DNA of 64,000 bases from a bacterium (GTDB lineage Bacteria; Verrucomicrobiota; Kiritimatiellia; CAIKKV01; CAITUY01): assembly GCA_037134355.1 (NCBI GenBank), contig JBAXMJ010000001.1, positions 16,951 to 80,950 of the forward strand. The letters are read 5' to 3'. The notes beneath the pieces are model-generated. The model saw nothing but the letters and a program-made list of their open reading frames with translations, was not told the DNA's origin and made no database searches. A program made the translations under genes and the position numbers. Positions 27,868 to 29,157 of this stretch are shown here, piece by piece (the first letter of the stretch is position 1; each line of letters begins with the position of its first letter).

Positions 27868-29157
27868 TCATGAATCCAAATACCCGCGCTTCACGGCATC
27901 CCGGATCATATTTTCAGCGAATTCCCACAATACACGGGACCCTTCCTCAACATGCCGGTTACGCTCCAGCACCTGTCCGCTACGAACCCCGTGCTTTTTC
28001 CACACCACTCCTGCCGTTCCGAAATTATGCATCAGAGGCTGAACCCGATCCAACGCCGCGGCAAATTTTGCCTCAGGGGTCTCACGAGCCTCGAATTCCG
28101 CCCAGATCGACATCAGATCCTGCCCCTGTTCATCCGGCAAAAGCCCAAACAAACGTTTTGCAGCAACCTGTTCACGAGCCACTTTATCACGGTTTCCAAT
28201 CTCGTCATAACAATAGGTGTCGCCGGCATCGATTTCCACGATGTCATGAACCAGAACCATCCTGATCACCCGTGCCAAATCCAGCCGGGGCTCATTCGCG
28301 TGTTCACACAGCAACACGGCCATAACCGCCAGATGCCAGGAATGTTCCGCATCATTCTCATAGCGGCTCCCGTCCAGCAACAGGGTGCGCCGTAATACGG
28401 ACTTCAATTTATCAATTTCCCGGATGAAATCCCACTGCTTTGCCAGACGACTCACCCCTGGTAATGGTTGCCCCCCATCCTGTCGTCGGGGTTCAGAAAT
28501 CCTGGCTCCGGGTCTTGCCTGTTCCACCCACTTCACGATTCGCTCGGCCACCTCGCGCTTGGACATCACCGGAAAGGGAATTGCCGGAGCGTCAGCCGTG
28601 ATAAACATCACCCGGTTGGTATCGACATCGAATCCTGCGTCGGGCTGGCTGACATCATTGGCGACGATCATATCCAGCCTTTTGGTCGTCACCTTGCGTC
28701 GCGCTTCGGCTTCTACATCAGTCGTCTCCGCTGCGAATCCCACAACCGTCCGGCTCCCTTTCCGGGGCTTCAGGGCCATCAGGATATCCGTTGTGGGCTC
28801 AAGCGTGAGCGTGGAGGACGCCTGGCGTTTTTTTACCTTCAGGCGGCTTACCTCTACCGGTCGCCAGTCGGCGACGGCAGCCGCCATCACCAGGGCATCA
28901 CAAGACTCGAAGTGGGTCGACACGGCGTCCAGCATCTCGGCGGCGGAGACCACGGACACCACGCGAATTCCCGCCGGGGCCGATAGGGAAACAGGACCGG
29001 AAATGAGAACCACCTCGTGCCCCCGATCGCGGGCCGAAACGGCAATGGCGTAGCCCATCTTTCCGGAAGAGCGATTACTGAGGAATCGAACGGGATCCAT
29101 GAACTCGCGAGTCGGCCCTGCTGTGATGAGAAAACGCATGCCGCTACCTTGCGTCAA
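27868..29157 (-). CDS. coaB: Fusion protein: phosphopantothenate-cysteine ligase (CoaB) N-domain plus HD-domain (YfbR-like 5'-deoxynucleotidase, HD_3) C-domain
   Basis: '[26 protein letters not shown]...AAAVADWRP' is CoaB. The C-terminal '[17 protein letters not shown]...[14 protein letters not shown]' is an HD metal-binding domain. Confidence 0.6.
   Translation of the reverse strand: [429 protein letters not shown]

Follow-up and report, generated by a model that had tools for sequence, protein, structure and literature searches.

Analysis of a 64,000 bp section of contig JBAXMJ010000001.1 (assembly: GCA_037134355.1), hereafter the window, from a bacterium of the Kiritimatiellia (Verrucomicrobiota) revealed an open reading frame (ORF) in which coaB, encoding phosphopantothenoylcysteine synthetase (PPCS), continues into the coding sequence of an HD_3 phosphohydrolase. 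This CoaB-HD_3 ORF was intact, lay on the minus strand (27868–29157) and was 429 amino acids long when counted from the TTG at 29157. Nearly all of its homologues began at a methionine that is residue 7 of the 429 amino acid ORF and, because their N-termini begin at that methionine, the true start is most likely the ATG at 29139, which had a Shine-Dalgarno-like AAGG upstream of it. With this start the coaB::HD_3 fusion gene would span 27868–29139 (minus strand) and encode 423 amino acids followed by the stop codon. The residue numbering of active sites, linker and domain limits used here is that of the 423 amino acid frame. An earlier reading of the window, the original prediction, had described a single frame of 429 amino acids; its one uninterrupted frame stood, and its length is probably to be shortened to that given by the start at 29139.

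The protein consisted of a CoaB domain (residues 1–208; 28516–29139), an inter-domain linker of ~18 residues (residues ~209–226; 28462–28515) and an HD_3 metal-dependent phosphohydrolase domain (residues ~227–423; 27871–28461), all encoded on the minus strand. Pfam analysis placed both domains in the same frame, which agreed with the fusion as first described. The DFP/CoaB family (PF04127) matched ORF residues 6–186 (E = 1e-68, 231 bits, profile positions 3–186 of 186) and HD_3 (PF13023) matched ORF residues 248–411 (E = 3e-53, 180 bits, profile positions 1–165 of 165). Both domains had been called complete, and the coverage of the full Pfam profiles together with the retention of the catalytic residues in each half bore this out. 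The full-length match to PF13023 and the presence of the H...HD motif likewise identified the C-terminal domain as a member of the HD hydrolases.

The NCBIfam coaBC model (TIGR00521) was matched through its C-terminal CoaB half alone (profile positions 186–390 of 392, 202 bits), with a score under the cut-off of the model since the N-terminal half was missing, and the flavoprotein/CoaC domain PF02441 was not found in the fusion protein by Pfam. BLASTP of the CoaB domain against residues 189–376 of Escherichia coli Dfp revealed 46% identity, and matches to the CoaB half in the PDB included 5int (E = 1e-56) and 1u7u (E = 2e-41). The active site of CoaB comprises a K-X-K-K loop that binds cytidine triphosphate (CTP) and a set of Arg, Asn and Asp residues (R207, N211 and D281 in the Msm enzyme; R206, N210, D279 and K289 in that of E. 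coli; PMC7794376). In the fusion protein R18, N22, D91, K101, K103 and K104 aligned with R206, N210, D279, K289, K291 and K292 of E. coli Dfp, respectively. An alignment of 35 family members showed that the CoaB motifs DPVR..N.SSG, AAVAD, KxKK, FAAET and ANDV were invariant, as were the HD motifs EHSWH, HD..E...GD and ALDR, and that the catalytic residues of both halves were invariant in these 35 members, down to 56% identity.

In E. coli YfbR, a 5'-nucleotidase of the HD_3 family, the metal ligands are contributed by the H...HD motif, Glu72 is catalytic, Asp77 binds ribose and Arg18 binds phosphate. Alignment of the HD half with YfbR matched H266, H298-D299, E302 and D307 to YfbR H33, H68-D69, E72 and D77, and these residues, together with D364, were invariant in the family. 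D364 is the putative last metal ligand by its invariance and position, the YfbR alignment being off by 3 residues there. The counterpart of Arg18 was R250, which was invariant, or, with the gap placed differently, R251, and the position aligned with YfbR Trp19 was not conserved in the family. The best PDB match of the HD half was 3kh1 (E = 2e-67), an uncharacterised 'predicted metal-dependent phosphohydrolase', and human HDDC2 was matched with E = 2e-16.

The linker was hypervariable in both sequence and length across the 35 aligned members. Some homologues had a greatly expanded linker. In one (P0068, residues ~222–290) it carried an extra, low-complexity insert of ~50 residues, most notably Gly, Ala and Ser, and in another (L108, 3113–3988) it consisted of a tandem repeat of the peptide TSAPHQDSGGL. 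An AlphaFold2 model built on the family alignment contained two confident domains, with a predicted local distance difference test score (pLDDT) mostly of 85–94 in the CoaB domain, and a linker (residues 212–227) with a pLDDT of <50 that was predicted to be disordered. The predicted template modelling score was 0.53 and the relative placement of the domains was therefore not confident. The two halves are predicted to fold independently.

Distribution and origin of the fusion

The PF04127 + PF13023 architecture was found in 77 clusters at 90% identity in a large protein database, drawn from NCBI, ENA, JGI and Logan assemblies. Their members were 417–473 amino acids long and ranged from 96% down to ~54% identity to the query. 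Linkers that differed in sequence and length all kept the frame across the 77 clusters, and the in-frame fusion was also present in 8 independent metagenome contigs. When 1.84 billion representatives at 50% identity were searched exhaustively with HMMER, a single one contained CoaB and HD_3 together. The remaining hits with two matched stretches, considered as other origins of such a fusion, were HD_3-HD_3 tandems and were rejected. The architecture had been predicted to be unusual and this domain-architecture search for DFP + HD_3 fusions, with its 77 clusters and one representative, confirmed it to be so. No description of a CoaB-HD_3 (PPCS + HD, PF04127 + PF13023) fusion was found in the searchable literature.

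An assembly error in the window, in which a frameshift or a missing stop had joined two genes, was considered and rejected, as the fusion recurs across independent assemblies. Two related contigs (L095 and L103) were frameshifted in or near the linker, and separate coaB and HD_3 genes occur in a sister lineage (the P0172 contig and L109), both of which such an error would accommodate. It would not account for an in-frame fusion that recurs in 77 clusters from four data sources, with the frame kept despite varied linkers, and in 8 further metagenome contigs, and we give it a negligible probability. In three related metagenome contigs, L095 (1000–2390), L103 (4886–6180) and L098 (4175–5268), coaB or the linker was frameshifted or otherwise disrupted. 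The cause may lie in sequencing errors, or the fusion may really be decaying into a pseudogene or splitting again.

The CoaB half was compared with CoaB proteins in a genome collection. After one fused species representative, its closest relatives were stand-alone CoaBs of Lentisphaerae and Kiritimatiellae (56–61% identity), followed by CoaBC fusions from other phyla (~46–55% identity to the fused CoaB). In a neighbour-joining distance tree the fused CoaBs nested among the stand-alone CoaBs of Kiritimatiellia and Lentisphaeria with ordinary branch lengths. Because of this nesting and the intact active site, the fused CoaB is probably a vertically inherited housekeeping PPCS. CoaB was already separate from CoaC in the Kiritimatiellia/Lentisphaerae part of the Planctomycetes-Verrucomicrobia-Chlamydiae (PVC) group. 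The location of coaC, which the original prediction had raised, was addressed within the 64-kb window, where tblastn with a CoaC query found no homologue; CoaC would be encoded elsewhere in the genome. Public records of homologues of the fusion protein were inconsistent, naming them either 'phosphopantothenoylcysteine decarboxylase' or 'putative hydrolase of HD superfamily'. The former label is wrong, because the CoaC domain is absent from the protein.

The absence of an attached CoaC in this lineage raised the explanation that dimerisation of HD_3 stabilises the CoaB dimer, so that the HD half stands in for CoaC as a scaffold. In the CoaB dimer each protomer lends its KxKK loop to close the active site of the other, and mycobacterial CoaB without CoaC neither dimerises nor works (PMC7794376). 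HD_3-HD_3 tandems in a single polypeptide were frequent (P0078–80, 431 amino acids; P0083; P0258–P0260), which suggests that a dimer is the functional unit of HD_3. However, E. coli CoaB dimerises unaided (PMC7794376), and stand-alone CoaBs of ~217–240 amino acids were frequent in these PVC lineages, also among the closest sister groups of the fused clade. As a tether, 18 to ~70 flexible residues would also be weak, and the HD catalytic residues, needless for a pure scaffold, were all invariant. Such a stabilising role is accordingly rated as very unlikely.

Four divergent fused loci had differing flanks but always carried a thymidylate synthase-like (ThyA-like) gene of ~294–306 amino acids directly upstream on the same strand, and this gene occupied that position in every fused locus examined. 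A sample of 80 metagenome loci centred on the ThyA-like gene was classified by what lies downstream of it. All ThyA-like copies with ≥77% identity to that of the window (L093–L109), together with L124 (74%), had coaB directly downstream. Among copies less similar than these, all 58 whose contigs extended far enough downstream stood alone. The fused state was represented by 8 clean contigs and 2 with frameshifts that are maybe sequencing errors. In the P0172 contig and L109, thyA, coaB and HD_3 (297, 217 and 199 amino acids, respectively) were three separate genes that overlapped by 4 nt. In a third state, found in a metagenome-assembled genome (MAG) labelled Kiritimatiellia and in L097, thyA-coaB was present without HD_3. 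L097 grouped inside the fused clade in the CoaB distance tree. Its gene for a sigma-54 enhancer-binding protein (EBP) started 10 nt past the end of coaB, without a detectable trace of HD_3 between the two genes. As L097 nests in the fused clade and the EBP gene directly follows coaB, this indicates that HD_3 was lost secondarily once inside the fused clade. The 185-kb P0172 contig also encoded a Cytidylate_kin2 protein (PF13189) two genes downstream of the unfused thyA-coaB-HD_3 genes, which could be a coincidence or hint at a cytidine-nucleotide theme.

Because only one representative in 1.84 billion carried the fusion and the fused loci shared the thyA-coaB operon context, the fusion is, as far as the compared sequences tell, a single, recent and clade-restricted event in a pre-existing operon of a Kiritimatiellia-like PVC clade.

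The ThyA-like partner and flanking genes

The ThyA-like gene of the window (29144–30028, minus strand) opens the conserved module and encodes 294 amino acids from Met14 of an ORF reaching 30067. Its stop codon TAG (29146–29144) was 4 nt ahead of the fusion ATG at 29139, and the fusion stop codon TGA (27870–27868) was 1 nt ahead of the ATG at 27866 of a sigma-54 EBP gene (26103–27866, minus strand). No terminator-like site was present on the minus strand between these three genes. The original prediction had the fusion gene packed between a divergent ThyA-family gene upstream and a sigma-54 EBP gene downstream, and the 4-nt and 1-nt gaps are in keeping with this. A sigma-70-like promoter candidate upstream of the ThyA-like gene (30077–30104, minus strand) was a weak consensus match, and sigma-70-like matches in the region were not above shuffled expectation.

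The ThyA-like protein passed the gathering threshold of Pfam Thymidylat_synt (PF00303; 37.2 bits against 24.3). Its best NCBIfam match was the methanogen-type ThyA model TIGR03283 (99 bits, below the cut-off of 174.55), the bacterial ThyA models of NCBIfam gave ≤34 bits, and its best PDB match had an E-value of only 3e-4; no solved structure is close to it. In ThyA, Cys146 (E. coli numbering) is the catalytic residue and Asn177 selects uracil. The family-invariant residues C166, R191, S192, D194, N202, H239 and Y241 of the ThyA-like protein aligned with E. coli C146, R166, S167, D169, N177, H207 and Y209, and R126 was also matched by a family-invariant residue. E. coli R127 and H147 were replaced by Q147 and L167, which were themselves invariant in the ThyA-like family. 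Homologues of 294–306 amino acids went by the name thymidylate synthase in Opitutus, Akkermansiaceae and Kiritimatiellia; the Opitutus gene, like that of a Kiritimatiellales MAG, stood alone. This family (P0121–P0240), though a very divergent ThyA, was strongly conserved in Verrucomicrobiota (70–99% identity).

The divergence of the ThyA-like protein, seen in its weak PDB match, its scores under the NCBIfam cut-offs and the replacement of R127 and H147, is one of two observations in favour of a specialised pathway in which the ThyA-like, CoaB-like and HD_3 proteins jointly synthesise a modified pyrimidine nucleotide or some other product outside housekeeping metabolism, CoaB being a neofunctionalised paralogue. 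The other is the tight and clade-specific linkage of the three genes. Throughout Verrucomicrobiota, however, the ThyA-like protein carries the annotation thymidylate synthase, and its gene was alone in 58 of the 80 sampled loci. The protein was also extremely conserved, as a housekeeping ThyA would be, and kept both the Cys needed for catalysis and the Asn that selects uracil. CoaB, for its part, retained every PPCS active-site residue and did not form a long branch among the PVC CoaBs. A specialised pathway of this kind is improbable, and marginally more so than the scaffold role considered above.

The EBP, encoded by the third gene of the transcription unit and outside the conserved module, comprised an N-terminal domain followed by PAS, AAA+ and HTH_8 domains in a Pfam search. 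Its gene was found downstream of the module in closer relatives only (L085/L086, L097 and, weakly, L001) and was absent in L081 and L083. The N-terminal domain (~150 amino acids before PAS; window 27417–27866, minus strand) was conserved, with counterparts in L085 (9274–9720), L097 (5553–6002) and L001 (9419–9751) that were 30–62% identical and kept the gene order. It had no Pfam family match (best MoCF_biosynth, E = 0.11), and a suspected likeness to low-molecular-weight protein tyrosine phosphatases (LMW-PTP) was unsupported by Pfam. Just downstream of the operon (24147–25711, minus strand) the window encoded a ferritin-like protein, a desulfoferrodoxin and a thioredoxin-like protein. This cluster, a typical oxygen defence of anaerobes, was syntenic with L085.

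The HD_3 half and the function of the fusion

E. coli YfbR, named 'dCMP phosphohydrolase' in RefSeq, and the related Trypanosoma brucei enzyme are metal-dependent (Co/Mn/Mg) 5'-nucleotidases that work best on dCMP, dUMP and dTMP, and the T. brucei enzyme also accepts ribonucleotides (PMC5098729). The T. brucei study placed this activity in a route from dCMP through deoxycytidine and deoxyuridine to dUMP, which feeds thymidylate synthase (PMC5098729). Judged by its family, the likeliest activity of the HD half is that of a phosphatase of (deoxy)nucleoside 5'-monophosphates, probably pyrimidine (d)NMPs, and since tested members of the family feed the dUMP route to thymidylate synthase, a role beside a thymidylate synthase gene is plausible. 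The domain had been described as a YfbR-like HD domain. Its membership of the HD_3 family held, and the YfbR-specific label did not, with 26 bits against the 122 asked for by the YfbR model and 3kh1 the closer match; the HD half is thus not a YfbR orthologue, though its activity may resemble that of YfbR.

Relatives of this HD_3 domain (P0266, P0268, P0271, P0274, P0281, P0286, P0288, P0297, P0300 and P0084) were fused to GNAT, LMW-PTP, zeta-toxin/AAA_33 kinase-like, NUDIX, radical SAM and EamA domains as well as to ATC hydrolase, a Mur-ligase-type domain and HAD, at least 9 unrelated partner types. The 3kh1-like HD_3 is thus a promiscuous fusion module, which weakens the case that its fusion to CoaB implies a CoaB-specific function. 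The neighbours of stand-alone HD_3 relatives were mixed, with EamA and PBP in one case and RNase HII and adenylosuccinate synthetase in another. The latter, in Desulfuromonas sp. SDB (L008, 7004–9907), was a stand-alone HD_3 of 54% identity located between the two genes, a neighbourhood with a mild nucleotide flavour that is not decisive.

We consider it probable, if by no great measure, that the fusion protein is a two-headed enzyme with independently working halves, one acting as PPCS and the other dephosphorylating pyrimidine (d)NMPs, which arose by fusion of operon neighbours and whose benefit is co-expression. The N-terminal half would be an ordinary CoaB that ligates 4'-phosphopantothenate and cysteine in a CTP-dependent reaction, releasing cytidine monophosphate (CMP) and pyrophosphate, and the C-terminal half would be an HD_3 metal-dependent phosphomonoesterase. 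The ThyA-like gene, coaB and HD_3 would first have become adjacent and translationally coupled in the Kiritimatiellia-like PVC clade, after which the coaB stop codon would have been lost once, joining coaB and HD_3 through a floppy linker. The fusion would mainly fix co-expression and stoichiometry, and substrates would not be channelled between the halves. The HD half would be functionally paired with ThyA in pyrimidine deoxynucleotide turnover and the supply of dUMP, like the YfbR-type enzymes of E. coli and T. brucei, with CoaB a housekeeping neighbour, as coaBC is to dut in E. coli. A fusion of operon neighbours is favoured because of the unfused three-gene state, the absence or loss of HD_3 in related loci, the hypervariable linker and the promiscuity of HD_3.

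These same four observations point away from the novel catalytic coupling that the original prediction had suggested, namely hydrolysis of CMP or a dephospho-CoA-related step. Under such a coupling the HD half would either remove the CMP formed by CoaB and so relieve product inhibition, or dephosphorylate a phosphoester of the CoA pathway (4'-phosphopantothenate, 4'-phosphopantothenoylcysteine or 4'-phosphopantetheine) as a brake or for damage control, in the manner of a bacterial PANK4 analogue. The fusion does join coaB, and not thyA, to HD_3, and at the loci examined HD_3 always followed coaB and never thyA directly. CoaB releases CMP (PMC7794376), some HD_3 enzymes take ribonucleotides (PMC5098729), and the phosphatase of PANK4 provides a precedent in that it dephosphorylates 4'-phosphopantetheine and limits CoA synthesis (PMC9352595). 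The lack of conservation at the YfbR Trp19 position means that the substrate preference may differ from that of YfbR. Nevertheless, the linker is long, hypervariable and predicted to be disordered, with no confident packing of the domains, sister lineages lack HD_3 and one member of the fused clade lost it while keeping coaB, and relatives of the domain are joined to at least 9 unrelated partner types. Hydrolysis of CMP would also be wasteful, as CMP is normally recycled by CMP kinase. We regard a coupling of the two activities as unlikely.

Several points weigh against the two-headed enzyme with independent halves. The position of HD_3, invariably after coaB and not next to thyA, would suit a functional link to CoaB just as well. 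The HD half was only 25% identical to E. coli YfbR and did not reach the YfbR equivalog (NF003009/PRK03826; 26.3 bits against a cut-off of 122). With similarity to YfbR this low and 3kh1 uncharacterised, the proposed substrate is a family-level guess. The neighbour-joining tree on which the placement of the fused CoaB is based carried no support values. Finally, the fusion was kept over a clade of ~56–96% identity, which could reflect selection for physical linkage and not neutrality.

Comparison with known systems and significance

Like E. coli CoaBC (Dfp, b3639) and the stand-alone CoaB structures (5int and 1u7u), the fusion protein has the same active-site residues and KxKK loop. It differs from CoaBC in that it has no CoaC flavoprotein domain and its C-terminus runs on into HD_3. 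The E. coli dfp gene overlaps dut by 23 nt, so that there too the 3'-end encoding CoaB leads straight into the gene of a phosphohydrolase that acts on pyrimidine deoxynucleotides. In the present locus, however, the partner is of the HD_3 monophosphatase type and not a dUTPase, it is covalently joined to CoaB, and the operon begins with a gene for thymidylate synthase. YfbR, the T. brucei HD 5'-nucleotidase and human HDDC2 belong to the same Pfam family as the HD half, and the metal ligands, catalytic Glu and ribose-binding Asp align, whereas the low identity to YfbR, the score below the equivalog cut-off and the unconserved Trp19 position set it apart. PANK4, a pantothenate-kinase-like protein with a DUF89 domain, resembles the fusion in that a CoA-pathway domain is joined to a metal-dependent metabolite phosphatase; it differs in having the DUF89 and not the HD fold, in the step of the CoA pathway concerned and in being eukaryotic. 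The PANK4 phosphatase acts on 4'-phosphopantetheine (PMC9352595) and the fusion described here is known from sequence.

The independent juxtaposition of CoaB with pyrimidine-deoxynucleotide enzymes in E. coli and in the Kiritimatiellia-like clade might reflect a metabolic link between CoA and cytidine or deoxypyrimidine nucleotides, in which the HD half processes CMP or a 4'-phospho intermediate in a design of the PANK4 type. We hold this to be doubtful, slightly more so than the coupling of the two halves discussed above. The families of both domains and of the partner gene are well known and it is the architecture that is rare; with no sign of either half working on the substrates of the other, the fusion is a real but modest curiosity.

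If the halves are merely co-expressed, the locus represents a clean, datable fusion of operon neighbours in which the unfused, fused and split or lost states are all extant. It also corrects the annotation of records that read 'phosphopantothenoylcysteine decarboxylase' or only 'HD hydrolase', shows that CoaB is uncoupled from CoaC in this lineage and adds, besides E. coli dfp-dut, a second, independent link of CoaB to enzymes of dTMP precursors. Were the halves instead coupled, the fusion would provide a tractable handle on the old, unexplained association of CoA genes with those of dTMP precursors and a first function for the 3kh1-like subfamily of HD_3.

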